Below are positions 3,043-61,159 of a stretch of 64,000 nt of DNA, in pieces. Made by a program: the position numbers and the translations under genes. The DNA comes from Candidatus Omnitrophota bacterium (GTDB lineage: Bacteria > Omnitrophota > Gorgyraeia > B26-G9): assembly GCA_043826565.1 (NCBI GenBank), contig JBDRPX010000004.1, positions 10,232 to 74,231 of the forward strand, read 5' to 3'. Numbering within the stretch: the stretch's first letter is position 1; each line of letters opens with the position of its first letter. A model generated the notes under the pieces. That model did no database searches and was not told the DNA's origin. It saw only the letters and a list, made by a program, of their open reading frames with translations.

Positions 3043-3289
3043 TAAAATTAATTCAAAAGTCAAAGACCAAAAGTCAAAAATACAAATCAAAATTAAAAAG
3101 TTAAAAATAATATAACAGAATATATTGACAAAATTGAAAATAATCAAAAGTTGGATTCTATTAATAAGTGAACTGTTTGTTGATGATAGAATGCTTTAAA
3201 AATATTTCTTTAAATAATACAAATATATATTTTTGATTTTTGAATTTTGATTTCACAGTGTTGTGAAGAAAGGAAGGATGATTTAGTAT
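3043..3289. repeat. intergenic quasi-palindrome built from tandem CAAAAGT-like units (left arm) and their complement (right arm)
   Basis: tcaaaagtcaaagaccaaaagtcaaaaatacaaatcaaaatt ... tttttgatttttgaattttgattt. Confidence 0.6.
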
Positions 3290-5162: not shown

Positions 5163-5988
5163 ACAAAAGGGGAAAACTATAGGGTTTGTCCCGACTATGG
5201 GATATTTACATCAAGGGCATCTTTCTTTAGTCCGGCAGTCGGTTAAGGATGCTGATGTCACGGTGATGAGCATCTATGTAAACCCTCTGCAGTTTGGGCC
5301 GAAAGAAGATTTTAAGCTGTATCCCCGTGATATTAAAAGTGATATGAAACTTGCCAGGAGTTCCGGAGTAGACTATGTTTTTATTCCTTCTGATCAGGAT
5401 ATGTATGCTGAAAAGTATCTTACGACAGTGGAAGTTAATGAGATCAGCGGACGGATGTGCGGAGCTTCCCGGCCGGGTCATTTTAAAGGAGTTACCACAG
5501 TAGTAAGTAAGCTTTTTAACATTGTTTTGCCGGATATCGCGTATTTTGGTCAAAAAGATGCCCAGCAGGCTGTTATTATAGGGAAAATGGTTAAGGATCT
5601 AAATATGCCGGTCAAGGTAAAAGTCTTGCCGATTATTCGTGAGCCTGATGGTTTGGCCAAAAGTTCCCGTAATATTTATCTGAGCCCGGGGCAGAGGAAG
5701 GACGCGGCAGTATTATTTCAAGCTTTGCAGATCGCCCGCAAAATGATCATTGAGGGAGAGCGGAATCCCGGAAAAGTTATTTTAAGAATGAAAAGATTGA
5801 TTTCTCAGACGGAGTCTGTTACAATAAACTACATTGTAATCGCAGGAGCTGATGATCTGCTGCCGGGAAAAAAGATATCCGGAAGAACATTAATAGCTTT
5901 GGCGGTGTTTATCGGCAAGGTAAGATTGATTGATAATATAGTAATTAAAGTCAAAAGTCAAAAGTCAAAAATCAAAATTACAAGTTAA
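5110..5988 (+). CDS. panC: pantoate--beta-alanine ligase
   Basis: GFVPTMGYLHQGH (HIGH-like) and other PanC-wide conservation. It overlaps the preceding ORF by about 50 nt. Confidence 0.85.
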   Translation: MKLIRSVLRMQNLSKKLRQKGKTIGFVPTMGYLHQGHLSLVRQSVKDADVTVMSIYVNPLQFGPKEDFKLYPRDIKSDMKLARSSGVDYVFIPSDQDMYAEKYLTTVEVNEISGRMCGASRPGHFKGVTTVVSKLFNIVLPDIAYFGQKDAQQAVIIGKMVKDLNMPVKVKVLPIIREPDGLAKSSRNIYLSPGQRKDAAVLFQALQIARKMIIEGERNPGKVILRMKRLISQTESVTINYIVIAGADDLLPGKKISGRTLIALAVFIGKVRLIDNIVIKVKSQKSKIKITS

Positions 5989-6082
5989 AATTCAAAATGA
6001 AAAAGAGAATAGTTTTATAGTTGTTGTTTTTGAGTTGAACTTATGGGTTTTGACTTTTGAATTTTTAATTTTTTGAAGAGGG
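5945..6082. repeat. intergenic quasi-palindrome (gtcaaaagtcaaaagtcaaaaatcaaaatt ... ggttttgacttttgaatttttaatttt)
   Basis: Direct reading of the sequence. It lies between panC and panD. Confidence 0.65.
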
Positions 6083-12096: not shown

Positions 12097-12169
12097 GCGC
12101 CTGTAGCTCAATGGATAGAGCACTAGTCTTCGGAACTAGGAGTTGTCCGTTCGAGTCGGACCAGGCGCG
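12097..12169 (+). tRNA. tRNA-Arg (anticodon TCG)
   Basis: Hand-folded cloverleaf: acceptor GCGCCTG/CAGGCGC, D-arm GCTC..GAGC, anticodon loop CTTCGGA, T-arm GTCCG TTCGAGT CGGAC. Confidence 0.8.
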
Positions 12170-12227
12170 CTTATTCTTGACCTTAAGTTTATTTTTTGTT
12201 ATAATTTAAACTTCCGAAAGAATCGGA

Positions 12228-12303
12228 GGGCCGTTAGCTCAATCGGTAGAGCATCTGACTCTTAATCAGGGGGTTGAAGGTTCGAGTCCTTCACGGCCCA
12301 CCA
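12228..12303 (+). tRNA. tRNA-Lys (anticodon CTT), CCA encoded
   Basis: Acceptor GGGCCGT/ACGGCCC, anticodon loop CTCTTAA, T-loop TTCGAGT, 3' ACCA. Confidence 0.85.
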
Positions 12304-12339
12304 ATTGTATCCTATAGTAAAGGTGGTGAAGCTTCTGTG

Positions 12340-13020
12340 ATGAAAGATATACAGGAACAGTTTGAACTGTTTGAAAAGGTAAATAATAAATACCGCAGCA
12401 TAGGAGATGTATTTGTTTTACTATTAATCGTTGTTTTGTTTGTGCAGATCGGTGTTATGGGGTATTTTATTACTAATATTGATACTGCCGAAATACAAGA
12501 AAAACTGGTAAAAAGAAGTATTGAGGTTGTCCCGGTTCTGCGGGATGAGATTAGTGATACTTTAAGAGAAGTTATTCCGGTATATGCCGAGGAGTTTAAA
12601 CAAAAAGTAGAAAAGCGTATGCCGGAATTTGAGGCGAAGCTTGAAAAAGAAAGCGGAGAATTTGTTGCCGGTTTTGAAAAAAAGATTTTGCCGAAAGCAG
12701 AAGCAAAAATTGATATATTAAGTGAGCGTACATTAGCCGTAATCCTAGAGGAATTTCCGGAATTGCAGGATTCGGAAAACACAGAAAATGTTGTAAAGAA
12801 TTTAAAAGAAGCTTTAGTCATTGCTTTTGCGGATATCTTTACGGATAAGCTCTCAAAAGCGGATAAGATCTTTAGGGGAATTAAAGAAAAACTTGATAAG
12901 ATGCATAAAGGTAACTTACAAATTGAAGATAATGTTGAAATAAAACTTCTTGCAGTTACTTTTCAATTAGCCGGTAAACGAATCGCGGAAGAAATTAGCC
13001 AGATGGAAAGCGGAAACTAA
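12340..13020 (+). CDS. single-TM membrane-anchored protein, function unknown
   Basis: The start is moved to the ATG at 12340 because the longer ORF overlaps tRNA-Lys. RBS AAGGTGGTGA. One TM (VFVLLLIVVLFVQIGVMGYFI), then a charged helical region. Confidence 0.5.
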   Translation: MKDIQEQFELFEKVNNKYRSIGDVFVLLLIVVLFVQIGVMGYFITNIDTAEIQEKLVKRSIEVVPVLRDEISDTLREVIPVYAEEFKQKVEKRMPEFEAKLEKESGEFVAGFEKKILPKAEAKIDILSERTLAVILEEFPELQDSENTENVVKNLKEALVIAFADIFTDKLSKADKIFRGIKEKLDKMHKGNLQIEDNVEIKLLAVTFQLAGKRIAEEISQMESGN

Positions 13021-13035
13021 TTGGATCGGATAAAA

Positions 13036-13090
13036 AAGACCTCTCACTCTAAAAGAGTTCGAGGTTAATTTGTTAATGCAAATTAAGGAG
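13036..13090 (+). promoter_or_regulatory. conserved leader element, copy A (AAGACCTCTCAC...GTTCGAGGTTAATTTG-loop-CAAATTAAGGAG)
   Basis: One of three ~85% identical copies (also 27200-27253 and 60506-60558). Each ends in the RBS of the downstream gene. It contains a perfect 7-bp inverted repeat TAATTTG/CAAATTA. Confidence 0.55.
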
Positions 13091-13096
13091 TTTGTG

Positions 13097-13777
13097 ATGG
13101 GGCAGGAAAATAGCACGGTTTTGCTAATAGAGCAGAAGATTGAAAAACTGCAGAAAAAGATAAAAAGAAACACTATCGTTTTCTTGGTATTGCTTATTGC
13201 GGTGATCATTCACTCTGCGTATACTTGTGTCTGGACTCACGAAATGACAAAGCCGGAGATGATTGTCGATGCTTTGTACGGAAAAGTTCTCTTGTCTACT
13301 CCGGAAATTGGAAAGAACACAAGGAAATATTTAATAGAAAATGCAGCGGTTATTACCGATAATGTGCTTGATCAAAGTCTTGGGGTTTTACCGCAGATGC
13401 GTTTGCTTGCTTTAAGGCAAGCTGATATTTTGACGACAAAATTATTCAATGAGGCAATTCGTGATGTAGAGCAGGTAACCCGGGATATGCTCACAGAAAA
13501 TAAAGATAAGCTTAGGGAAGGTATTGAAAGCGGGCTAAAAGAAGAAAATGTCAGTGCTCTTTCTCTGAAGATCGTCTCTGAAGTTGAAGGGTCATTAGAT
13601 CCCTGGGTTGATGAAATGATCAACTCTTTAGAAGTTAACTTGGAAAGTATAAATAATCAGCTGGATCAGATGGATAATAAACGCCGTTTAACAAAAGAAG
13701 AACAGTTGGAGCAGCGGTTTATTGAGTTATGGTTTCAATTGATGGCGAAATATTTTCCGGAAAAGAAACAATTATAA
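13097..13777 (+). CDS. single-TM membrane-anchored protein, paralog of 12340-13020
   Basis: Same architecture (short N-terminus, one TM, long helical charged domain). Start set at the ATG 6 nt after the AAGGAG of the leader element. Confidence 0.5.
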   Translation: MGQENSTVLLIEQKIEKLQKKIKRNTIVFLVLLIAVIIHSAYTCVWTHEMTKPEMIVDALYGKVLLSTPEIGKNTRKYLIENAAVITDNVLDQSLGVLPQMRLLALRQADILTTKLFNEAIRDVEQVTRDMLTENKDKLREGIESGLKEENVSALSLKIVSEVEGSLDPWVDEMINSLEVNLESINNQLDQMDNKRRLTKEEQLEQRFIELWFQLMAKYFPEKKQL

Positions 13778-13781
13778 TCAG

Positions 13782-13866
13782 GCGGACGTGGCGGAATTGG
13801 CATACGCGTACGGCTTAGGACCGTATCCCTTCGGGGATGAGAGTTCAACTCTCTCCGTCCGCACCA
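13782..13866 (+). tRNA. tRNA-Leu (anticodon TAG), CCA encoded
   Basis: Acceptor GCGGACG/CGTCCGC, anticodon stem-loop TACGG CTTAGGA CCGTA, long variable arm, T-loop TTCAACT. Confidence 0.85.
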
Positions 13867-14024
13867 AGTAGTTTGTAGCTCATAGCTGATGGTTCATAGT
13901 CAAAAGAAAAATGCTAAATAAAAAATTATTATTTATCATTATTTTGAAAATCCTATCAGTTAATTTTATACAGTTGTATTTTTTACTATGAGCAATAAAC
14001 TATGAGCCATAAGCTAATAAATAC
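13867..14024. repeat. intergenic quasi-palindrome of CATAG-containing units between tRNA-Leu and tRNA-Gly
   Basis: tagctcatagctgatggttcatagtc ... ctatgagcaataaactatgagccataagcta. Confidence 0.55.
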
Positions 14025-14099
14025 GCGGCGGTAATTCAGTGGTAGAATGTCTGCTTGCCAAGCAGAATGTCGAGGGTTCGACCCCCTTCCGCCGCTCCA
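14025..14099 (+). tRNA. tRNA-Gly (anticodon GCC), CCA encoded
   Basis: Acceptor GCGGCGG/CCGCCGC, anticodon loop TTGCCAA, T-loop TTCGACC. Confidence 0.85.
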
Positions 14100-17976: not shown

Positions 17977-19608
17977 ATGAAAGGTAAACTGTTGAATAAA
18001 TTATTTATCATGATGGTGAGTATTTTGATTCTTCCTGTAGCTGCCAGAGCAGAGCTTGTGCTGGTAGCGGATATCGGGATTGAAGCATTTGGCCCGGAAG
18101 TGAAGATTTCCGTCACTTCTAATCTGCCTTTGCAGATTGAAACATTTAAGAGTGAAGAAGGTTCATCAAACTATATAGTTGTCGATTTTTTAGGAGCAGT
18201 ATATTCAGATCTTCCGCCGGTTGTGGATATAAGCAGCGGTGCGGTAGAAAAAGTAAGTCTTGTGCGGGGAGAGGAACAGCCGGTATCAGTAGACGGAAAA
18301 GAATATTACACTCTCGATTTTTTAGCAATTAACTTAAATGCCGATGCTGATTACAAAGTTGATCAGGATATGAATGTTATTGATTTGAAAATTACTGCTG
18401 TTGCAAAATCAGATAAGCTGTCTAAAGAAAGTGAGGCGGTTGTTTTAGAACCGCCGGTAGTTGTTACCCCGAGGAAAGTGGAAGTACCCAAGATTGAAAA
18501 AAAAGAAGATGTTGAAAAAGCGGAAAAAGAAAATAAGAAAGAAGAAGCGAGATTAGCTAAAGAAGCAAAGAAGGCGGAAAGAGCAAAGAAAAAAGAAGAA
18601 GTGAGATTAGCTAAAGAAGCAAAGAAGGCGGAAAGAGCAAAGAAAAAAGAAGAAGCGGGATTGGCTAAAGAAAAGCTGGAGAAAAAAATAGAATCAAAAA
18701 ATCCTGAAAAGAAGAAAAATGTATTAATCGTAAAAGCAGAACCGGAGCAAAACCCGGAGGTTAAAAAGACGGTAAGCCGTGCTGTTGATCCGGCTAATAA
18801 ATATATAATTGATAAGGTTGTCCAAGATACTATGCGTGAAAAAGAGCAGGTTAATTCCCGCATTGAAGAATTGACCGCTCAGCTGCAGCGCATGCAGAAA
18901 GATCTTGACTCCACAAAAGGTGAAAAATCTAAGATAGAAAGTAAAATAAGCGAAATTCTGTCAAGACTTGATGATGTTAATGACGCTTTAGGACTGGAAA
19001 TTAAACGTCGTCGTGAGTTAGGTGAACAGGTTGAGGATTTGGTTGAAAAAAGAAAGGCCTATACGCAGGCAAAGAGAACATTTGAAACTGTTGCCGCACA
19101 GCTTGCCGATACAAATGACAAAGTTGATACTTTGACCGCGGAAGCAGCCGCGGTCAAAGGTAATATTAGTGAGCTGGAAAAAGAAAAGAGTCAGCTAGAG
19201 TCAAAATTTGGCGCGCTTAGTACGGAAAGCGGCCGCTTTGAGGCTGATTATGAAGAGGCTTTGGATTTAAGTAACCGGAGTTCTGCGAAAGTAGATGAAT
19301 TAAGAAGAAAGCTTGAGCAAATGGAGATGACTCTCGCCAAGACCCTAAAAGATGAAGAAGCGCTTAAAGCTAAAGTTAAGGATTTAGAAAGTAAAAGAAA
19401 ATTCAGCAGTATAGAAGCGTCAAATTTTAAACAAAAATTAATGGATAAAGAAATATTATTAGATAATCTCTCCAGAAAATATGAACAGCTGAATAACGAA
19501 TTGGAGCTATCTTTGATGCAAAAGGATAAGCTTGATGAAGAATATAAAGATGCCAAGAATAAATATGAACAAATTAAACGCGAAGTTAAAGAGTCTATTA
19601 AAAATTAA
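17977..19608 (+). CDS. secreted AMIN-domain protein with Lys/Glu/Ala tandem repeats and a long coiled coil
   Basis: Signal peptide, then an AMIN-like beta domain (LVLVADIGIEAFGPEVKISV...YIVVDFLGAVY), then repeated KEEARLAKEAKKAERAKKKEE units, then heptad-rich sequence. Confidence 0.55.
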   Translation: MKGKLLNKLFIMMVSILILPVAARAELVLVADIGIEAFGPEVKISVTSNLPLQIETFKSEEGSSNYIVVDFLGAVYSDLPPVVDISSGAVEKVSLVRGEEQPVSVDGKEYYTLDFLAINLNADADYKVDQDMNVIDLKITAVAKSDKLSKESEAVVLEPPVVVTPRKVEVPKIEKKEDVEKAEKENKKEEARLAKEAKKAERAKKKEEVRLAKEAKKAERAKKKEEAGLAKEKLEKKIESKNPEKKKNVLIVKAEPEQNPEVKKTVSRAVDPANKYIIDKVVQDTMREKEQVNSRIEELTAQLQRMQKDLDSTKGEKSKIESKISEILSRLDDVNDALGLEIKRRRELGEQVEDLVEKRKAYTQAKRTFETVAAQLADTNDKVDTLTAEAAAVKGNISELEKEKSQLESKFGALSTESGRFEADYEEALDLSNRSSAKVDELRRKLEQMEMTLAKTLKDEEALKAKVKDLESKRKFSSIEASNFKQKLMDKEILLDNLSRKYEQLNNELELSLMQKDKLDEEYKDAKNKYEQIKREVKESIKN

Positions 19609-19654: not shown

Positions 19655-22222
19655 ATGAGGAAACGTTTTTTTCTGTTGTTAGTTACAACGGCCTTGATAA
19701 TTTTTACTGGTGGCGCGCAGCTTTTTGCTCAGTCGGTTGTCTTAACTGATACAGAAATTAAAGAGGATTCTGACGCCGTACAATTGTTGTTTTCAACTAA
19801 TCGGTCTATTCCCATTGAATGTTATGACCTAAGTACTCCCCCGCAAATCGTGATTGATTTTATGGGTGAAATATATAGTAATAAACCTGAGATCATGATG
19901 GTAAACAAAGGTGCTGTAAAACAGATACGTGTAATAAAGGGGACAAGACAAGCAGCAGACTTAGATGATGCGTATTATTCTGTTGATTTTATTATTGTGG
20001 ATTTAAAAGAAGCCTTGCGATATGACTTTAACCAAGGATTAACTACCGCGGTTTTAGTTATTTCAAAACCGGGAAAAATCGTTACGGCAAAAATTCCCCT
20101 GAAGGAAGTCCCGGAAGTAGAACCTAGGACGGTAAGTCCGGAACCGGTTGAAAAGAAAGTTGTGGAAAAAGAAGTTGTTAAGAAAGAAGCTGTTAAACCG
20201 GTAGTTACTGAGAAACCTTTGCCGGTCGTGAAAAAGGAAAAGCCGTTTTTACTTGAGGAAAAAGAGCGTGATGCTGAGCAGGTGGTAATGCCTGCGAAAA
20301 AAGCGGATAAGGTTGTGGAGGCTTCTGATGAAGGTACTGTCGCGAAAAGTTCCAAAGCGGTTGGTAAAGGAATAGCTAAAGGCGTAGGAAGTTTTGGCAA
20401 AGGAATAAAAAACTTCTTTGGAGGGAAAGATAAAGATTCCAAAGAAGAACCTAAGGAAAATAGAAAAAGCAGAAGATCCAGACAAAATAAGGTAGCCCAA
20501 AAGAAGGAAAAAGAAGAAAAGAAAGCTGCTGCGAAACCGCAAAAGAAACTTTCTGCAAAACCAAAGAAAACAAAGGAGTTCTCCATAGAATCGATCTCCT
20601 TAGAAGAAGCGACAAAAAACTTGGCGGGTGCTAAAAGGGAATGTGGAAAAGCAGAGGAAGAAGTAGATGCCTTAAAGAAAGAAGTTGCTGATATAAATGC
20701 CGGCTTGGAGCAGGAGAAGGAAAAATTCGAAAAGAAAAAATCCGAAATCTCCGCTACTGAGGAAAAGAAAGACAGTGCTGAGAAAGATTTTAAGGCTGCT
20801 TTAAAGAAAACAGATATTGCGAAGAACAAAGCGAACGCTGTCTGGGTCGAATATGCCGAGGTTAAAGATCAGTTAAGCAGTCTTTTAGAAGGGAATGAAA
20901 AAGAAAGTATTATTGAAGATAGACAAAAGAAATATGAGAAAAAGAAAGAAATACTGGAGTCTTCGATCCGAGAAGCAGAAGAAGCTAAAGCGGGAAGCGA
21001 CAAAAAACTAAAAGAATACAATTTCTTAAAAGAAGAAGTGGGTAAATTATCACAGGAAGCAAAAGATCCGGAAAAGAAGATTGAAGTATTACAAAACAAG
21101 CAGCGTGAAACAGAAAAAAAACTTAATCTGGCAATGAATGATTTGAATGCGGCAAATAAGAAATTATCAAAAGCCGGGAGAGATTATAAGAAATATGAAT
21201 TAGAGAAAGCTGATGAGGAATATCGAAAATCCTTATTGGAGATAGATGAAGAAATAATTGTTCAAATGGAAGATCGCAGCAGTAAGCACGTAGAGAAACA
21301 GAAAAATGAAGAAGAAAAACGTAAAAAAATAGTTGAGAAAACCGCGGAAAAAGAAGCCCAGATTGAAGAGGAAAAATTAGAGAAAGAAACGATCAGAGAG
21401 GAACGCGCTCGTAAACGAGAGGAAGCTTTAGCCGCGAGAAAAGCGGAAAGAGAACAGAAAAAGGAAGAGGCTCGATTAGCTAAAGAAGCGAAAATGGCTG
21501 AAAAGGAAAAGAAAAGAGAAGAGGCTAGGCTGGCTAAAGAAGAACGCAAGGCCCAAAGAGAAGAGAAAAGAGAAGAAGCTAGGTTAGCCAAAGAAGCGCA
21601 AGAAGAGCTTAATAGAGAAGAAGAGATAGCTGAGATTGCTAAACAAGATGCTCAGGAAGCAGCTTTATTGCTTGTGCAGGAAAAAAGGCTGAAAGAAGAA
21701 GTTGTTGAGGAATATGCTGAGGAAGAAGTTGCGGAAGAAGAGGTATTGGTTGTTCCTGAAGAAGATAAAGAAATTCGGCCAAAAAGAAGAAAGACAAGTC
21801 TTGCCGCTAAGAAAAAAGCAGTTGAACAAAAATCACCGCGGGAAGAGATCTTGAAATCAGCAGTTGAGTTGCGCAATGCCGGTCTGGAAATGCAGCGTAC
21901 CGGGGATTTGGACCGCGCACTTAGATATTACCAGAAAGCGTTGATGAGTGATCCGGAATATGCGGCGGTGCATAATGACTTAGGTATTCTTTATGAACAA
22001 AAAGGCTTGGATGAGAAAGCAAAAATGGAATATCTTAAAGCTTTAAAAATAAATCCTTATTATATAAAGTCTCACAGTAATTTAGCTCTTTTATATGAGA
22101 AGTTTGGAGATAATAATAAGGCGTATTATCATTGGAAGCAAAGGGCTGAGTTAGGAGATCCTAATGATCCATGGACTGGAAAAGCAAAAGAAAAAATGGA
22201 AGAATTTAAGCAGAGAAAGTAG
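19655..22222 (+). CDS. secreted AMIN-domain protein with Lys/Glu repeats, coiled coil and C-terminal TPR repeats (paralog of previous)
   Basis: Signal peptide, an AMIN-like domain (VVLTDTEIKEDSDAVQLLFS...IVIDFMGEIY), EEARLAKEAK repeat units shared with the upstream gene, and C-terminal TPR-like helices (ALRYYQKAL...YLKALKINPYY). Confidence 0.55.
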   Translation: MRKRFFLLLVTTALIIFTGGAQLFAQSVVLTDTEIKEDSDAVQLLFSTNRSIPIECYDLSTPPQIVIDFMGEIYSNKPEIMMVNKGAVKQIRVIKGTRQAADLDDAYYSVDFIIVDLKEALRYDFNQGLTTAVLVISKPGKIVTAKIPLKEVPEVEPRTVSPEPVEKKVVEKEVVKKEAVKPVVTEKPLPVVKKEKPFLLEEKERDAEQVVMPAKKADKVVEASDEGTVAKSSKAVGKGIAKGVGSFGKGIKNFFGGKDKDSKEEPKENRKSRRSRQNKVAQKKEKEEKKAAAKPQKKLSAKPKKTKEFSIESISLEEATKNLAGAKRECGKAEEEVDALKKEVADINAGLEQEKEKFEKKKSEISATEEKKDSAEKDFKAALKKTDIAKNKANAVWVEYAEVKDQLSSLLEGNEKESIIEDRQKKYEKKKEILESSIREAEEAKAGSDKKLKEYNFLKEEVGKLSQEAKDPEKKIEVLQNKQRETEKKLNLAMNDLNAANKKLSKAGRDYKKYELEKADEEYRKSLLEIDEEIIVQMEDRSSKHVEKQKNEEEKRKKIVEKTAEKEAQIEEEKLEKETIREERARKREEALAARKAEREQKKEEARLAKEAKMAEKEKKREEARLAKEERKAQREEKREEARLAKEAQEELNREEEIAEIAKQDAQEAALLLVQEKRLKEEVVEEYAEEEVAEEEVLVVPEEDKEIRPKRRKTSLAAKKKAVEQKSPREEILKSAVELRNAGLEMQRTGDLDRALRYYQKALMSDPEYAAVHNDLGILYEQKGLDEKAKMEYLKALKINPYYIKSHSNLALLYEKFGDNNKAYYHWKQRAELGDPNDPWTGKAKEKMEEFKQRK

Positions 22223-22226
22223 GATT

Positions 22227-23501
22227 ATGTCTAACTTAGTGATTGTCGGTGCTCAATGGGGAGATGAGGGCAAAGGAAAAATTATTGATATTCTCTCTAA
22301 AAACGCGGATTATGTTGTTAGGTATCAAGGCGGTAATAATGCCGGGCATACTGTGGTTGTCGGAGAAACTGAGATTATTTTACATCTTGTTCCTTCCGGG
22401 ATTCTGCATAAAAATAAAATTTGTGTTATCGGGAATGGAGTGGTTATTGATCCGCAAGCTCTGCTTACGGAAATCGCTTATCTTAAAGAACGAAATATTG
22501 ATGTTAAAAATAATCTTAAAATAAGTGATAGAGCGCATGTAATTTTTCCCTATCATAAGGTGCTTGATCAGCTTCGTGAAGAAAAGTTTAGAAAAACAAA
22601 GATCGGGACCACCGGTAGAGGGATCGGCCCGTCTTATACGGATAAGTTTTCCCGCGGAGGGATTCGTATCGGTGATCTTTTAAATAAGAAGATATTTAAA
22701 GAAAAATTAGAGTGTAATCTGGAAGAAAAGAATGCGATTTTTACCAAAGTGTATAAATATAAAAAGTTTTCTTTTCAACAGATATATACTCAGTATTTAA
22801 AGTATGCCGAAAAGATAAAGCCGTATGTATGTGATTGTTCGGTTCTTTTGAATGAAGCGATAAGTAAACGCAAAAAAATACTTTTTGAAGGAGCACAAGG
22901 AACACTTTTGGATATCGATAACGGTACTTATCCGTTTGTTACTTCTTCAAATTCTACTGCCGGAGGAGCTTGTGTGGGTACGGGAATAGGCCCGACCAAG
23001 ATTAATAAAGTTACCGGGATAGTAAAAGCATACACAACCCGCGTCGGAGAAGGTCCGTTCCCTACGGAATTTTCGGATGTATTGATGAAAAAAATAAGAC
23101 GTATTGGAAAAGAATTTGGGGCGACTACCGGCCGGCCGCGCCGTTGCGGATGGTTTGACGCTGTTGTGGTAAAACATGCGGTAGCGACTAACGGCTTAGA
23201 CAGCATTGTCGTAACTAAGCTTGATGTTCTGGATACAATGCCGTCATTGAAAATATGTGTGGGATATAAATATAAAGGAATACTGTATACTAATTTTCCG
23301 TCTGATATTGAGGTGCTTTGGAAAGCTAAACCGATATATGAGGAATGTGAGGGTTGGATGGCGGATACAACTCGAGCAAAAAAGTTTTCGGATCTGCCGG
23401 TAAACGCTCGTAAATATCTAAGTAAATTGTCTGGGTTAGTAGGTGCAAAAATTGAAATTGTGTCTGTCGGCTCAGAACGAAACCAAACATTATTTGTCTG
23501 A
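22227..23501 (+). CDS. purA: adenylosuccinate synthetase
   Basis: VIVGAQWGDEGKGK P-loop and GTTGRGIGP motifs. Confidence 0.9.
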   Translation: MSNLVIVGAQWGDEGKGKIIDILSKNADYVVRYQGGNNAGHTVVVGETEIILHLVPSGILHKNKICVIGNGVVIDPQALLTEIAYLKERNIDVKNNLKISDRAHVIFPYHKVLDQLREEKFRKTKIGTTGRGIGPSYTDKFSRGGIRIGDLLNKKIFKEKLECNLEEKNAIFTKVYKYKKFSFQQIYTQYLKYAEKIKPYVCDCSVLLNEAISKRKKILFEGAQGTLLDIDNGTYPFVTSSNSTAGGACVGTGIGPTKINKVTGIVKAYTTRVGEGPFPTEFSDVLMKKIRRIGKEFGATTGRPRRCGWFDAVVVKHAVATNGLDSIVVTKLDVLDTMPSLKICVGYKYKGILYTNFPSDIEVLWKAKPIYEECEGWMADTTRAKKFSDLPVNARKYLSKLSGLVGAKIEIVSVGSERNQTLFV

Positions 23502-23675
23502 AAGGAAAATCAAAAATCAAAAATTAGAAATCAAAATGACAAAGAAAAATGTAAAAAGAATAAAAAATTACAAGAAATAAAATATGATTGTTATTCTATG
23601 ATTTTTCTTTTATAATTTAGATTTGACATTTTGCATTTTGACCTTTGAATTTTGACTTTAACAAGGATACTAAAG
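23502..23675. repeat. intergenic quasi-palindrome (aaatcaaaaatcaaaaattagaaatcaaaatgac ... tttgacattttgcattttgacctttgaattttgac)
   Basis: Between purA and mgtC-like. The centre contains a TATAAT-like hexamer. Confidence 0.65.
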
Positions 23676-26347: not shown

Positions 26348-27196
26348 ATGAAAAGAAGACTTTATACATTAGTTGTTCCGCGATTTGAGGATATTTTTCA
26401 TTCTTATTTTGCGCAGGAGATTATTAAAGGTGCCAGTTCTGCGGCTAGCCATATAAATGCCGATTTGCTGATACATATTACCGAGCGTGGTTCTCATGAT
26501 GATTGGATAAGCGCTTGCGCGCTTAAACCGGGGTTTTCCGACGGGATAATGTTTGCGGATATTGATCAGGACCGGAGCGGGCTTAATAGAATTATTAGCC
26601 GGAATATCCCTCATCTTGTTTTAAATAATTATTTTGACGGTCCGGGAAATTGTATTGGTATTGATAATTATAAAGCAACTTTGAAAATTGTTGATTATTT
26701 ACTTAGGCTGGGGCATAAACGTATTGCGACGATTTGCGGAGAACTTAATACGCAAGCCGGATCACAGCGTTTAAAGGGGTTTAAAGACAGGCTTAAAGCT
26801 CATGGCCTAGAGGTTAATGACAAGTATATCAAGAAGGGGGAGTTTTTAAGAACTCCGGCCCGTCGTGCCGCCGAGTATCTGCTGGGCTTGGATAATCCGC
26901 CGACGGCAATTTTCGCGGCTAGTGATGTGATGGCTCTGGAAGTTTTGGATGTGGCTAAGAAAAAAAATATTAAGATACCTGAGGATTTATCAGTGATTGG
27001 TTTTGATGATAATCCGTTAAATGTTTACAGTCCTATATCTCTGACTACCGTGAGGCAGCCGATCGCGGAAATGGCCAGGATGGGGTTGGAGATATTAAAT
27101 AGAATTGTTAAAAGGCAGGAGAAACTTCCGGTAAAGCAGAAACTTTCGGCAAGACTGATTAAAAGAGACTCCTGCGGAGAATATAAAATAAAGTGA
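26348..27196 (+). CDS. LacI-type periplasmic-binding-fold (sugar-binding) domain protein lacking the HTH
   Basis: Peripla_BP_1-like sequence from residue 1 (LVVPRFEDIFHSYFAQEIIKG ... FAASDVMALEV ... IGFDD). There is no N-terminal DNA-binding helix-turn-helix. Confidence 0.55.
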   Translation: MKRRLYTLVVPRFEDIFHSYFAQEIIKGASSAASHINADLLIHITERGSHDDWISACALKPGFSDGIMFADIDQDRSGLNRIISRNIPHLVLNNYFDGPGNCIGIDNYKATLKIVDYLLRLGHKRIATICGELNTQAGSQRLKGFKDRLKAHGLEVNDKYIKKGEFLRTPARRAAEYLLGLDNPPTAIFAASDVMALEVLDVAKKKNIKIPEDLSVIGFDDNPLNVYSPISLTTVRQPIAEMARMGLEILNRIVKRQEKLPVKQKLSARLIKRDSCGEYKIK

Positions 27197-27199
27197 ATT

Positions 27200-27253
27200 A
27201 AGACCTCTCACCTAGGCAGGTTCGAGGTTAATTTGCTAAAGCAAATTAAGGAG
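27200..27253 (+). promoter_or_regulatory. conserved leader element, copy B (upstream of secG)
   Basis: AAGACCTCTCACCTAGGCAGGTTCGAGGTTAATTTGCTAAAGCAAATTAAGGAG, with the ATG 7 nt downstream. Confidence 0.55.
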
Positions 27254-27818: not shown

Positions 27819-29450
27819 ATGAAAAAAAAATTACCGCTTTTTGCGGTATTTTTTTTAGCGGCAATAATATTCGGCGGATGTTCCGCGGATAAAAAAGAAG
27901 CGGTTTTTAATGAAGAAGAAAATTCTATTCCCGCTTATGGGGATATAATTGTCGAGGCCGGGATAGGCGATGCCCGAACTCTGGTTCCGATACTTGCCTC
28001 AGATAGTGCTTCCGGAAAGATCTGCGGGCTTATTTTTAATGGATTGGTCAAATACGATAAAGACCTTAATCTGGTTGGAGAGCTGGCCCAGAGCTGGGAT
28101 ATCCAGGAGGATGGACTGGTTATTGTCTTTCATTTACGAAAAGACGTTAAATGGCATGACGGCCGTTTGTTTACTGCTGCTGATGTTGAATTTACTTATA
28201 AAAAACTTATCGATCCGAATGTTCGGACTCCCTATAGCGGTGATTTTGTAAAGGTCAAGAATTTTGAAGTTATCGATGATTATACAGTAAAAATTACATA
28301 TGACGAACCGTTTTGTCCCGGCTTGGCCAGCTGGGGAATGAGTATAATGCCGCAGCATATCCTGGGAAAAGAGGATTTAAATAATACTGCTTTTTCGCGT
28401 AATCCTATCGGCACTGGCCCCTATAAGTTTAAAAAATGGAAAACGCAGGAACTTATTGAGTTGGAATCCAATCATGATTATTATGAGGGACGCCCTTATA
28501 TTGACCGTTTTATTTTGCGTATTATTCCTGATCCTTCAACCATGTTTTTAGAATTACAGAATCGCACTATTGATTATATGGGTCTTACCAGTCTGCAGTA
28601 TGTCCGGCAGACGCAAACCAAATTTTTTGAACGTTTCTATCATAAATTCAGATATCAGGGATTCTTTTTTACTTATCTGGGTTATAACTTATCTGATCCC
28701 AAGTTTAAAGATATCCGGGTGCGTAAGGCAATTAATTATGCTGTAAATAAGCAGGAGATCATCCAGGGAGTATTGCTGGGTGTGGGGACAGAATGTACCG
28801 GCCCGTTTGCCCCGCGTTCCTGGGCATATAACCGGGGAGTTAATGCGGTTGAGTATGATTTGGTGAAGGCCAAAGAACTTCTAGGGCAAGCCGGCTGGCA
28901 GATTGATAAAGACGGGATATTAAAGAAAGATGGTCAAATCTTTAAATTCACGATTATTACCAATCAGGGGAATGACGAAAGAAAGCGTGCCGCGGAAATT
29001 ATTCAGAAGCGGTTAAGTAAACTTGGGATGAAGGTCAAGATAAAAATACTGGAATGGAGTTCTTTTATTAATGAATGTATAAATAAGCGTAATTTTGAGA
29101 CAGTTCTTCTGGGGTGGTCTTTGTCCATGGATCCGGATTTGTATGATATTTGGCATTCCAGTAAAATAAAAGAGGGTGAGTTTAATTTTATCGGCTACAA
29201 GAATGAAGAGGTAGATAAGCTTTTAGAACAGGGGCGCAGGATATTTGATCAGGAAAAGAGAAAACAATTGTATAATAGAGTTCATGAAATAATATATGAT
29301 GAACAGCCGTATCTTTTTCTCTATACTCCGGACAGCTTACCGGTTTTAAGCAGCCGTTTCCAGGGAATAAAAGTAGCTCCGCTAGGTATTGGATATAATT
29401 TTATTAAATGGTATGTACCGAAATCAAGGCAGAAATATATTCTGCCTTAA
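27819..29450 (+). CDS. ABC transporter substrate-binding lipoprotein, family 5 (peptide/nickel type)
   Basis: Lipobox FGGCSAD, with length and conserved blocks of SBP_bac_5 (OppA/DppA/NikA-like). Confidence 0.75.
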   Translation: MKKKLPLFAVFFLAAIIFGGCSADKKEAVFNEEENSIPAYGDIIVEAGIGDARTLVPILASDSASGKICGLIFNGLVKYDKDLNLVGELAQSWDIQEDGLVIVFHLRKDVKWHDGRLFTAADVEFTYKKLIDPNVRTPYSGDFVKVKNFEVIDDYTVKITYDEPFCPGLASWGMSIMPQHILGKEDLNNTAFSRNPIGTGPYKFKKWKTQELIELESNHDYYEGRPYIDRFILRIIPDPSTMFLELQNRTIDYMGLTSLQYVRQTQTKFFERFYHKFRYQGFFFTYLGYNLSDPKFKDIRVRKAINYAVNKQEIIQGVLLGVGTECTGPFAPRSWAYNRGVNAVEYDLVKAKELLGQAGWQIDKDGILKKDGQIFKFTIITNQGNDERKRAAEIIQKRLSKLGMKVKIKILEWSSFINECINKRNFETVLLGWSLSMDPDLYDIWHSSKIKEGEFNFIGYKNEEVDKLLEQGRRIFDQEKRKQLYNRVHEIIYDEQPYLFLYTPDSLPVLSSRFQGIKVAPLGIGYNFIKWYVPKSRQKYILP

Positions 29451-29617
29451 AAAATTCAAAATTCAAAGGGCAAAACTCAAAACTGCAAGTCAAAACTAAA
29501 AAGTAGAAAATGAAAATCATTGTTTTAACTTTTGATTTTTGAATTGTATTTTTGACTTTTGAATTTTAAGTTTTGACTTATAAATTTCACCATATTGTTG
29601 TTAAAAGATTGGATAAA
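29451..29617. repeat. intergenic quasi-palindrome of TCAAAA(C/T)-type units and their complement
   Basis: aaaattcaaaattcaaagggcaaaactcaaaactgcaagtcaaaact ... ttttgatttttgaattgtatttttgacttttgaattttaagttttgac. Confidence 0.65.
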
Positions 29618-53193: not shown

Positions 53194-53308
53194 TAAGTGG
53201 TAAGAATTAAGGATTAAGAAGAAAACAAAAGGCAAAAAATAAAAGAAAAAAAATATAAATTAAAAAAATGTCACTTAATACTTACGACTTAATCCTTATG
53301 ACTTAATT
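53194..53308. repeat. intergenic quasi-palindrome (ttaaggattaagaag ... cttaatacttacgacttaatccttatgacttaa)
   Basis: Immediately upstream of the peptidase/kinase/PqqD/rSAM cassette. Confidence 0.55.
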
Positions 53309-59108: not shown

Positions 59109-60521
59109 ATGCACAAAGAGCATATTTTAGTTGTCGATGATGAGCATGGAATGCGGGAATATCTAAAAAAACTTTTAACGGATAATAATTATTTCGTATC
59201 CCTTGCCGCTAATGGCGCGGAGGCATTAGAGCAGATAAAAAATGATGAGCCGGCTGTGGCCTTAATGGATTTTAAAATGCCGAATATGAACGGATTGGAA
59301 CTGTTGGAAAAATTTAAACAGATGCATCCGCATATAACGGTGATCATGATGACTGCTTACGGCACGGTGGAAAACGCGATCAAAGCTATGAAGCTGGGCG
59401 CGTATGATTATCTGAATAAACCATTTGAAATGGAAGAAATACTATTGGTTATCGCTAAGGCTTTAGAGAAAAGGCGTCTGGAAAAAGAAAACATTTCTTT
59501 GCGTAAGCAGATTAAAAAGACATATACTTTTGAGGATATTGTTTCCGGAAATAATCAAATGCAGCAAATTTTTGAAATTGTAAAAAAAGTGGCCGGGGCA
59601 AGAAGTACGGTGCTTATTGAAGGTGAAACCGGAACCGGTAAAGAACTGGTTGCCCGGGCTATTCATAACCTAAGCGAGCGGAAAGACAAGCCTTTTATTG
59701 CGGTTGACTGCAGTGCGCTTACGGAAAGTCTTTTAGAAAGTGAATTATTCGGCCATGTGCGGGGCGCGTTTACCGGAGCAACTAGAGATAAAAAAGGGCT
59801 TTTTGAAACTGCTGACGCCGGAACGATATTTTTGGATGAAGTCGGGCATATGTCTTTGGAGATTCAGTCAAAATTATTACGCGTATTGCAGGAGGGGGAA
59901 ATTAAGCGTGTCGGCCAGGCTACTCCGCATAAAGTGGATGTCCGCCTTATTGTTGCGGCTAATGAGCGTTTGGAAAACAGGATAAAAGCCGGTAAGTTCC
60001 GGCAGGACCTTTATTACCGGATCAATGTCGTGCCTGTATATCTGCCGCCGCTTAGAGAGCGCAGTGAAGATGTGCCTCTTTTGATTGAATATTTTATTGG
60101 GAAGTATAATAGTATTGAAGGCAAACAGTTAAAGGATATATCTCTGGATGCGTTGAAAGTTTTAATGGATTATTGCTGGCCGGGGAATGTGCGGGAACTG
60201 GAAAATCTTATTCATCGCGCGGTGGTTATGGAGGTAGGGCCAATGATCACTCTTAATGATTTGCCCGCAAACATAAGAATGCCGGAGACCGCGGAAAAGC
60301 GGGAGGAATTGCCGCGGATAAAAAATTTCCGCCAGGCCAAGCGAAAAATCGTAGAGTCATTTGAAAAAAGGTTTTTAACGGAAGCCTTGACGAGGCATAA
60401 CGGCAATGTGAGTAAAGCGGCGAGAGAAATGGGATTGGATCGGAGGAATTTGCAAAGGAAATTTAAAGATTGTGATATAGATTCTGATAAATTTAGAGTT
60501 AAGGGAAGACCTCTCACCTAA
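59109..60521 (+). CDS. sigma-54-dependent response regulator (REC-AAA+-HTH, NtrC family)
   Basis: REC Asp pocket (VVDDE...D), Walker A GETGTGKE, the GAFTGA motif, and a C-terminal Fis-type HTH. Confidence 0.9.
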   Translation: MHKEHILVVDDEHGMREYLKKLLTDNNYFVSLAANGAEALEQIKNDEPAVALMDFKMPNMNGLELLEKFKQMHPHITVIMMTAYGTVENAIKAMKLGAYDYLNKPFEMEEILLVIAKALEKRRLEKENISLRKQIKKTYTFEDIVSGNNQMQQIFEIVKKVAGARSTVLIEGETGTGKELVARAIHNLSERKDKPFIAVDCSALTESLLESELFGHVRGAFTGATRDKKGLFETADAGTIFLDEVGHMSLEIQSKLLRVLQEGEIKRVGQATPHKVDVRLIVAANERLENRIKAGKFRQDLYYRINVVPVYLPPLRERSEDVPLLIEYFIGKYNSIEGKQLKDISLDALKVLMDYCWPGNVRELENLIHRAVVMEVGPMITLNDLPANIRMPETAEKREELPRIKNFRQAKRKIVESFEKRFLTEALTRHNGNVSKAAREMGLDRRNLQRKFKDCDIDSDKFRVKGRPLT

Positions 60522-60558
60522 AAGGTTCGAGGTTAATTTGTTTACACAAATTAAGGAG
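60506..60558 (+). promoter_or_regulatory. conserved leader element, copy C (overlaps the stop codon of the response-regulator gene)
   Basis: AAGACCTCTCACCTAAAAGGTTCGAGGTTAATTTGTTTACACAAATTAAGGAG, with the ATG 7 nt downstream. Confidence 0.55.
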
Positions 60559-60565
60559 GTGTTGT

Positions 60566-61039
60566 ATGAAGTGTCCGAAGTGTGATAGTGCTCTAAGGAC
60601 GGCTAAGCATAGTGATGTTACCATTGATTTCTGTGAATTATGTTATGGAATTTGGCTGGATAAAGGGGAGTTGGAAAGAATAGCTGCTTATGAAAAAAAA
60701 GACGCGGCAAAAGCTGTGGAAACCCTGAAGAACTTGCTTAAGGCGGAAAATGAAATTGTTCAGGAGCAGAGTATTTGCTGTCCGCATTGTGAACAACAAA
60801 TGCAGAAAATTAAATTCACCACTAAGGACGGAATTGTTGCCGATAAATGTGCCGGCTGCCAGGGTATTTGGTTTGATAAGGGTGAATTAATATCAATTAC
60901 TGATCATATGGACGGAAAAAAGAATTCTAATCCAGGCCAGAGCAGGGATGTTTCCCTCTTACCCAGCATATTGGCTTTGGGAGGTATCATTGCTTTGTTC
61001 ATTTTATTATTGATTTGGGCTATTAGTTATTTTAAATAA
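60566..61039 (+). CDS. membrane-anchored protein with two TFIIB-type zinc ribbons (zf-TFIIB/PF13453-like)
   Basis: Two copies of the pattern CPxC...C.LC.GIW.DKGEL, followed by a C-terminal TM helix. Confidence 0.6.
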   Translation: MKCPKCDSALRTAKHSDVTIDFCELCYGIWLDKGELERIAAYEKKDAAKAVETLKNLLKAENEIVQEQSICCPHCEQQMQKIKFTTKDGIVADKCAGCQGIWFDKGELISITDHMDGKKNSNPGQSRDVSLLPSILALGGIIALFILLLIWAISYFK

Positions 61040-61159
61040 TAGCGTGTTTAATGTCGCGATGTGTCTAAAAATACGCATTAATTTTATTGATTTTGCGTTT
61101 TCAGAATTTCCTCATATTTTTATAAATATAACTCCTGTATTTTAAATAGGTTATATCAA

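Follow-up and report, generated by a model that had tools for sequence, protein, structure and literature searches.

Two abutting hairpins and a Shine-Dalgarno sequence form a dispersed intercistronic repeat in a Candidatus Omnitrophota genome

Dispersed intergenic repeats that place two stem-loops and a ribosome-binding site (RBS) upstream of genes have been described as REP2 in Neisseria and as IR-A and IR-B in Borrelia (Delihas 2011, PMC3184786). REP2 is 120-150 bp long, carries a promoter and an ATG, is present in 23-26 copies and forms the leaders of contact-regulated genes, which make up a co-regulated set (PMC3184786). REP/BIME sequences, located in the intercistronic spacers of enterobacterial operons, fold into hairpins in the mRNA and give cistrons different stabilities (Higgins 1982 and Stern 1988, as cited in PMC3184786). 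Mycobacterial interspersed repetitive units (MIRUs) are repeats of 40-100 bp in operon spacers, with ends overlapping the flanking genes, and the first report of them came from a two-component-system operon (PMC3184786). The plastid intercistronic expression element (IEE) is a short structured spacer that makes the downstream cistron a stable translatable unit (PMC2230500). Here we describe an element of 53-55 nt from a Candidatus Omnitrophota bacterium, present three times in a stretch of 64,000 nt (GCA_043826565.1, contig JBDRPX010000004.1, positions 10,232-74,231, forward strand), hereafter the window, to which all copy counts of the element refer. Each copy lies between co-directional genes. 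We tentatively read the element, at a likelihood somewhat short of even, as a lineage-specific dispersed intercistronic repeat that may act in cis on mRNA as a cassette for translation initiation and insulation. The most fitting classification is that of a new, lineage-restricted family within a known kind, and not of a conserved regulatory RNA family.

The three copies are on the plus strand, copy A at 13036-13090, copy B at 27200-27253 and copy C at 60506-60558, and both these positions and the sharing of sequence blocks agree with a first-pass annotation made from the sequence alone. The blocks AAGACCTCTCAC, GTTCGAGGTTAATTTG and CAAATTAAGGAG are identical across the copies, 45 of the 55 alignment columns are invariant, and the boundaries are sharp, with flanking sequences unrelated right to both edges. 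A 16-mer of the element has exactly three matches in the 64 kb, the next-best site carrying three mismatches. With a covariance model built from the three copies and searched with filters off, the copies scored 81-82 bits, as expected by construction, and the informative quantity is the gap to the next site at 16 bits; no fourth copy was found in the window by this search. Logan contigs of run SRR26275510, an independent assembly, hold copies A and B unchanged (contigs L007, L018 and L019 fall within the window), and an artefact of a single assembly is thereby excluded. The element is clearly real, non-random and structured. Its features are listed below by position, strand and content (SD, Shine-Dalgarno sequence; ORF, open reading frame).

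13036..13090, plus strand: copy A, between two 226-aa membrane-anchored orphan ORFs in a tRNA cluster; Logan contig L018, 579-633; upstream stop ending at 13020, downstream ATG 13097.
13038..13066, plus strand: copy A hairpin 1, GACCTC (13038-43) / GAGGTT (13061-66), internal loop TC/TC, ACTCT (13046-50) / AGAGT (13054-58), loop AAA.
13065..13086, plus strand: copy A hairpin 2, TTAATTTG / CAAATTAA, loop TTAATG; its first two Ts are shared with the 3' arm of hairpin 1.
13085..13090, plus strand: copy A SD, AAGGAG, 6 nt before ATG 13097.
27200..27253, plus strand: copy B, from a gene of the LacI-type periplasmic-binding fold (stop 27194-27196) to secG (ATG 27261); Logan contig L007, 8575-8628.
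27202..27229, plus strand: copy B hairpin 1, GACCTC/GAGGTT, TC/TC, ACCT/AGGT, loop AGGC.
27228..27249, plus strand: copy B hairpin 2, TTAATTTG / CAAATTAA, loop CTAAAG.
27248..27253, plus strand: copy B SD, AAGGAG, 7 nt before ATG 27261; SD and spacer like those of secG in relatives.
60506..60558, plus strand: copy C, from the end of a sigma-54 response-regulator gene to a double Zn-ribbon gene (ATG 60566).
60508..60534, plus strand: copy C hairpin 1, GACCTC/GAGGTT, TC/TC, ACCT/AGGT, loop AAA; the stop codon of the upstream gene takes up the final base of the inner stem and the two loop bases that come next.
60533..60554, plus strand: copy C hairpin 2, TTAATTTG / CAAATTAA, loop TTTACA.
60553..60559, plus strand: copy C SD, AAGGAGG, before ATG 60566; the predicted minimum-free-energy fold pairs this SD with the CCUCUC 5' arm of hairpin 1.

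A faint likeness to the element was also seen at 508-559 (AGACCT..(20 nt)..GAGGTTGTGGTTAAC..TAAGGAG, then an ATG at 565 after 5 nt). As a degenerate fourth copy it was rejected: it scored 8.6 bits (E ~8), lies inside the end of the upstream ORF and is not significant. It may be either a decayed copy or a chance resemblance.

The closest analogues of the element would seem to be Neisseria REP2, the Borrelia IR repeats and intercistronic REPs. Like the first two, it has no terminal inverted repeats and consists of two internal stem-loops followed by an RBS, directly upstream of unrelated genes. Unlike REP2, it is only 53-55 nt long, has no detectable promoter, loses its identity before the ATG, is intercistronic and in one copy overlaps the upstream stop; where REP2 has 23-26 copies, the element is known from three copies in one Omnitrophota metagenome-assembled genome. 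The resemblance, drawn between descriptions, appears to be one of kind and not of family. With REP/BIME sequences the element shares its small size, its palindromic nature and its place in the spacer of co-directional genes. REPs, however, are G+C-rich single imperfect palindromes that occur in either orientation, often paired, just after stops, in hundreds of copies and in association with RAYT, and none of the features of orientation, pairing, post-stop placement, number and RAYT association was seen for the element, which is palindromic and extragenic but has three copies in 64 kb, all in one orientation and never paired; its 5' end is not GTAG. As in MIRUs, one copy overlaps a neighbouring gene, copy C covering the stop of a two-component response-regulator gene. 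MIRUs differ in being often tandem and G+C-rich, with small ORFs bridging stop and start, whereas the element is single at each site and has no conserved bridging ORF, its TTG-initiated frames differing between the copies. Intercistronic REPs, MIRUs and the IEE are taken here as functional analogues of the element.

Fold prediction gave two hairpins that abut without a linker, so that the first half of the element, overlooked in the first-pass annotation, is a hairpin in its own right. Hairpin 1 consists of an outer stem GACCUC/GAGGUU, a symmetric 2x2 UC/UC internal loop and an inner stem-loop, the inner stem being ACCU/AGGU in copies B and C and ACUCU/AGAGU in copy A; the one extra U-A pair of copy A needs an insertion in each arm and is compensated. 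The wobble pair G3-U31 of hairpin 1 can form on the plus strand only. In partition-function folds in native context, the 5' arm of hairpin 1 is unpaired with a probability of 0.04-0.16 (0.04-0.07 in copy A), so that this hairpin is predicted to be in place almost all of the time. Hairpin 2, previously described as a perfect inverted repeat of 7 bp, is an inverted repeat of 8 bp, TTAATTTG / CAAATTAA (as RNA, (UU)AAUUUG/CAAAUU(AA)), around a variable 6-nt loop that differs at four positions among the copies. Both inverted repeats are internal to the element and lie side by side.

The copies differ almost exclusively where the fold would leave them free to differ. When the copies were aligned by structure, variation was seen in 7 of 10 loop columns but in only 2 of 46 non-loop columns (Fisher p=1.7e-5), the latter two being the compensated U-A pair insertion of copy A. 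As this insertion is the sole difference in the stems, a folded strand is under constraint, and the invariant stems and free loops show each copy to be constrained in that form. The spacer between the arms of hairpin 1 (7-9 nt) is variable in length and self-complementary, which fits a folded strand and not a dimeric operator in double-stranded DNA. The stems are invariant in sequence and do not covary. Similarity confined to these loci, with no compensatory change in the stems, had been named as grounds for giving up the motif; half of this was found, in that copies turned up in no other genome, but the stems hold one compensated pair insertion and the remaining variation is restricted to the loops.

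The 3' end of the element is held at a fixed distance from the start codon. AGGAG ends 6, 7 and 7 nt upstream of ATG 13097, 27261 and 60566 in copies A, B and C, respectively, and this constant spacing of 6-7 nt in 3/3 copies supports the proposed anchoring to start codons. The distance to the upstream stop, in contrast, is variable: the stop ends 15 nt before copy A and 3 nt before copy B, and lies within copy C (TAA 60519-60521), the overlap there having been noted correctly from the outset. An AGGAG-class SD at good spacing was found for about 10 of 58 window genes, three of them the genes of the element, and about 22 genes show none. (By a related count, about 40% of window genes have no recognisable SD 4-10 nt from the chosen start.) TTAAGGAG is identical in the three copies, such SDs are rare in this genome and the spacing is constant, all of which speaks for an SD that is either part of the element or the target of it.

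The first-pass annotation placed the hairpin at the ribosome-binding site. Coverage of the SD by the hairpin was not borne out, as in all copies the SD lies 3' of hairpin 2, just outside it, and AGGAG is predicted to be mostly unpaired in most contexts (of three flank lengths, the two shorter ones gave an unpaired probability of 0.65-0.82 for copies A and B; 0.40-0.56 in copy C). An RNA thermometer or SD-occluding hairpin was rejected on these grounds, the occluded conformer being an alternative only. Such a conformer arises in prediction because the CCUCUC 5' arm of hairpin 1 mimics an anti-SD. In the two-hairpin, SD-free state CCUCUC pairs with the internal GAGG (-16.6, -17.0 and -14.3 kcal/mol in A, B and C), and with GAGG forced open it pairs with the real SD (-14.7, -14.0 and -15.1 kcal/mol). 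The CCUCUC:SD conformer is within ~1-3 kcal/mol of the two-hairpin conformer in all copies, at a predicted cost of 2-3 kcal/mol in A and B and favoured by 0.8 kcal/mol in C. The predicted choice of a CCUC strand between the internal GAGG and the SD resembles the expression platforms of riboswitches and thermometers. Unlike those, the element has no conserved aptamer-like core, its loops are variable, its SD is predicted to be mainly open, it is not kept upstream of orthologous genes and it has no Rfam match. A leader-peptide upstream ORF (GAGG, 5 nt, then TTG in hairpin 2) was also considered and rejected, since the copies agree neither in its frame nor in its length: in A it is in frame with the gene, whereas in B and C it is out of frame and has 15-34 codons.

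Comparison with relatives indicates when the element came to these sites. The nearest relatives in a collection of 5.8 billion proteins have a regulator ~70% identical and SecG 65-80% identical to those of the window, and the lineage is thus poorly sampled. Six Omnitrophota relatives (SecG 69-80% identical) were compared around secG, and the gene order LarC, sometimes a LacI-like gene, secG and an SBP_bac_5 gene is kept in the five with enough upstream contig. The element is absent upstream of secG in 6/6 relatives, where the upstream regions are unrelated and gave no model match; this removes a conserved cis-regulatory secG leader from consideration and answers in the negative the earlier question whether orthologous secG genes carry the motif. 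No model match was found in ~104 kb of relatives' DNA, where ~5 copies would be expected at the density of the window. In one relative (L009) the stop of the LacI-like gene overlaps the secG SD, with a spacer of 13 nt, whereas the spacer here is 64 nt, 54 of which are the element. The secG genes of the relatives (6/6) already have (A/G)AGGAG(G) and an A/G-rich spacer, much like AAGGAGAAGGAAAATG here; judging from this, the secG SD may be ancestral and the element may have been inserted flush against it.

The sigma-54 response-regulator gene runs into copy C with its last five codons and its stop (GRPLT-stop, TAA 60519-60521). About 40 orthologues of this regulator end 10-14 residues after an RKxK motif, while the window regulator continues for 17 residues and ends in GRPLT. 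As this tail is longer than and unlike those of the orthologues, GRPLT appears to have been added by copy C as a foreign, element-encoded tail. In the closest relative a 1604-aa SecA-like gene directly follows the regulator gene; here the element and the Zn-ribbon gene intervene. The double Zn-ribbon gene (60566-61039) is absent from the same place in that relative (L017 7396-7644), so the element marks the 5' edge of a gene-sized indel. No homologues were found of the 226-aa protein downstream of copy A, an orphan, and the copy A locus is therefore not comparable with relatives. Taken together, the absence from relatives, the GRPLT tail and the locus differences indicate that the element was gained at these sites in this lineage, and from these sequence comparisons we infer that it arrived by copying at the DNA level after the split from the nearest sequenced relatives.

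Another intergenic motif was noticed beside copy C; it lies 3' of the regulator gene in the closest relative and now 3' of the Zn-ribbon gene in the window. The motif, GTCGCGATG.G.C.AAAAATACGCAT...ATTTTGCG, occurs once in the window (61053-61097), upstream of the long ORF starting at 61248. In the relative (~70% protein identity) the same motif, GTCGCGATG...ATTTTGCG, is found at L017 7424-7470 and 12493-12540 as an identical block of ~50 nt, upstream of the SecA-like 1604-aa gene and of a 6807-aa gene. The window motif contains a TGCGCAAAA/TTTTGCGCA palindrome, adjoins the NtrC-type regulator and could be an enhancer site of that regulator. The ORF at 61248-64000 has more than 900 aa and runs past the window end, with a G+C content of 0.45-0.49 against ~0.40 and internal 336-nt repeats at 62746-63717. 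It probably encodes a giant protein of the Omnitrophota type, such proteins being typical of the phylum.

The genes downstream of the three copies are unrelated. The gene 3' of copy B encodes SecG (PF03840), the gene 3' of copy C a double Zn_ribbon_TFIIB protein whose C-terminal tail is hydrophobic, and the gene 3' of copy A the 226-aa orphan, which has an N-terminal hydrophobic helix. The earlier naming of secG and of the double zinc-ribbon gene thus holds, while the paralogy proposed for the gene downstream of copy A is only marginal, the two 226-aa ORFs around this copy giving a BLASTP E of 0.13. The genes upstream of copy C are a histidine-kinase / NtrC-type (sigma-54) regulator pair. A promoter/terminator scan of the three copies found no sigma-70-like promoter or terminator consensus, and a sigma-54 or sigma-70 promoter inside the element was rejected, with no acceptable hexamers and, by inspection, no GG-N10-GC spacing. 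A cluster of four tRNAs (12097-14096) surrounds the two 226-aa ORFs (12340-13020 and 13097-13777), and 4 nt separate the stop of the second ORF from a tRNA. Upstream of the second tRNA, at 12177-12205, lies a promoter close to consensus (TTGACC-17-TATAAT, TG-extended), and the layout of promoter and ORFs in this cluster suggests an mRNA-tRNA co-transcript.

Database searches gave no known family to which the element could be assigned. Comparison with Rfam, recommended in the first-pass annotation, was carried out with Rfam 15: at the gathering threshold the whole window yielded only four tRNAs, and in permissive scans of the three copies the best E values were 2.2-5.5, at scores far below the gathering thresholds. 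Among GTDB species representatives, the hairpin 2 pattern GAGGTTAATTTG-N4-8-CAAATTAA had six matches in unrelated phyla, all without the rest of the motif, and these matches are due to chance. In JGI metagenomes, the hairpin 1 pattern AGACCTCTCAC-N5-12-GTTCGAGGTT had two high-GC matches without hairpin 2 or SD, which is consistent with chance. The 16-mer recovered from IMG/VR one identical stretch on two contigs, without the rest of the motif, and BLASTN against plasmids and phages returned fragments only (E ~0.5).

Several identities were rejected on structural grounds. The element is not a strict MITE, as it has no terminal inverted repeats and its 5' end AAGACCTC has no reverse complement in the 3' end TTAAGGAG. 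An integron attC site is one long imperfect hairpin bounded by the complementary core sites RYYYAAC and GTTRRRY; on inspection, an attC or dif-like site does not fit two separate hairpins that lack these core sites, have ends that are not complementary and occur as one site per gene. A tRNA-derived origin was suggested by GGTTCGAGG, which resembles a T-loop, but there is no T-arm pairing and no tRNA or tmRNA was called there. A minus-strand terminator would need a T-run after the hairpin, which is present in copy A only. The first-pass annotation had left a choice between a cis-regulatory RNA motif and a REP/MITE-like element, and the element turns out to mix the two: it is structured and dispersed to unrelated genes, but it is not a strict MITE, does not occlude the SD and is not a conserved secG leader.

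For the tentative reading given at the outset, a role in cis on the RNA is indicated by the anchoring to start codons, the strand-specific G-U pair, the constrained fold and the predicted open SD. The element would be transcribed as part of the spacer between two genes of the same strand and would directly adjoin the downstream SD. Its two abutting local hairpins would fold independently and keep a strong SD and the AUG in defined and largely single-stranded surroundings, regardless of the coding sequence upstream. They would probably also form a structural barrier, through which the stability of the downstream cistron becomes independent of that of the upstream one. In this proposed function the element would resemble the IEE and synthetic hairpin-plus-SD insulators, by analogy of mechanism only; the IEE differs in acting through a bound PPR-type (pentatricopeptide repeat) protein and endonucleolytic processing in plastids. 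A weaker step of the model concerns the alternative conformer. If CCUCUC left its decoy GAGG and paired with the real SD, an OFF state would result, and a ribosome terminating on the upstream ORF would cover the CCUCUC arm and favour the ON state, which amounts to translational coupling. Since the upstream stop is located 15 nt (copy A) or 3 nt (copy B) upstream of the element or within it (copy C), termination would bring a ribosome near or onto this arm, and on the predicted energies an anti-SD/decoy switch with translational coupling is possible. In an extended form of this idea, the element would be a portable bistable riboregulator, in which CCUCUC toggles between GAGG and SD as set by terminating ribosomes or an RNA-binding factor, copied before membrane-protein genes including secG as a post-transcriptional regulon of an Omnitrophota lineage, and thus a mobile cassette for translational coupling or regulation; we regard this form as highly unlikely.

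Several observations weigh against translation initiation and insulation as the function. At secG the RBS may not come from the element, which may be no more than tolerated there. The accessibility of the SD depends on the flanks, with AGGAG in copy B unpaired at only 0.22 with the longest flanks. The ON and OFF conformers are energy predictions, in which the pairing partner of the SD varies between copies. No processing site, RNase or binding factor was identified. The copies number three, all from one genome and hence one lineage for covariation, and their invariant stems fit recent copying or sequence-specific protein recognition equally well.

An alternative that we consider unlikely, though a serious contender, is that the element is a selfish REP/PATE-like DNA repeat with hairpins recognised as single-stranded DNA by a transposase or recombinase, e.g. 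an HUH/Y1 enzyme of the RAYT or IS200/IS605 type. It would insert beside an SD-like target, TTAAGGAG, or survive only in the stop-to-SD slot of compact operons, with any effect on the RNA incidental. The absence at orthologous loci in relatives shows that the element has moved, its near-identical stems and sharp edges are like those of a young family of repeats, the SD and spacer of secG seem to be ancestral, and a second class of structured intergenic repeats in the window indicates that the genome tolerates such elements. The single orientation would also match strand-specific transposition of single-stranded DNA, but is confounded by the strand bias of the window, in which ~55 of 58 substantial ORFs (~95%) are on the plus strand. 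A duplicated target is hinted at by AATTAAG on both sides of copy B and TTAAGG near both ends of copy C; the latter is in another register and copy A has only AAG, however, and these TTAAG repeats are too inconsistent to be called a target-site duplication. Terminal inverted repeats and a GTAG-type tetranucleotide at the 5' end are lacking, and no transposase or RAYT turned up, the window proteins not having been scanned systematically. Young neutral copies should moreover keep their loops as well as their stems, whereas 7 of 10 loop columns differ. The distance to an ATG is exactly 6-7 nt in 3/3 copies, and the density found so far in the genome is low.

Sequence-specific recognition would be the basis of a regulon tag, in which the invariant sequence binds one trans-acting factor that co-regulates the genes, either an RNA-binding protein or small RNA on the leader or a dimeric DNA-binding protein on TTAATTTG-N6-CAAATTAA. 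Invariant stems with varying loops and spacers are the pattern expected of such recognition, and Neisseria REP2 marks a co-regulated gene set (PMC3184786). All three downstream proteins are membrane-inserted, SecG included, each with a strongly hydrophobic segment (Kyte-Doolittle 19-residue mean of at least 2.58, where 8 of 55 window ORFs reach 2.5), but this association is post hoc, as was the choice of threshold, and a looser cut-off gives p ~0.08 with N=3. As an operator, hairpin 2 would offer 8-bp half-sites with a fixed 6-bp spacer; the spacer of hairpin 1, on the other hand, varies (7-9 bp) and is self-complementary, which together with the compensated inner stem is unfit for binding of double-stranded DNA, and an operator in this position, past the end of one gene and 6 nt from the ATG of the next, would find no promoter nearby to act on. 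No complementary small-RNA-like sequence was found on either strand of the window and no candidate factor was identified, and we hold a regulon tag to be distinctly improbable. Least credible, at a very low probability, is a weak intrinsic terminator or attenuator, in which hairpin 1 and the U-rich UUAAUUUGUU would stop some transcripts and set operon polarity. Hairpin 1 is stable (the two-hairpin fold is at -14 to -17 kcal/mol) and is directly followed by 5-6 U within 8-10 nt, but the U-tract is not continuous and is itself the 5' arm of hairpin 2, the terminator scan did not flag the element, a strong SD and the essential secG follow immediately with no promoter between, and gene ends in this genome appear to be served by other hairpins of much larger size.

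Other repeats were observed in the window. A second class of dispersed intergenic repeats, unrelated to the element, is found at 3045-3260, 5943-6075, 23489-23663, 29448-29577 and possibly 53204-53265. Each is an AT-rich imperfect hairpin of ~120-200 nt, built from AAAGTCAAAA-type units in the 5' arm and from TTTTGACTTTTGAATTTT in the 3' arm, and takes up the entire spacer from stop to next SD. One of them folds at -32 kcal/mol (z = -4.7), and they may be terminator or insulator structures. Tandem repeats of 54 nt (18-aa units) occur at 18462-18726 and 21385-21649, ~2.8 kb apart; the two arrays are mutually related and fall in two long ORFs starting at 17977 and 19535.

To our knowledge, the Omnitrophota are a phylum without cultured genetics. 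Neither a role on the RNA nor a purely selfish origin of the element would bear on a long-standing open question. If the element is only a selfish repeat, it would be a marker of recent genome change in this lineage and an example of repeats remodelling gene ends, as in the GRPLT tail on the regulator. If it acts on the RNA as proposed, it would be a compact natural cassette of hairpins and SD that is reused to drive internal cistrons; it would show how genes inside operons gain independent strong initiation, and might be usable as an insulator in synthetic biology.

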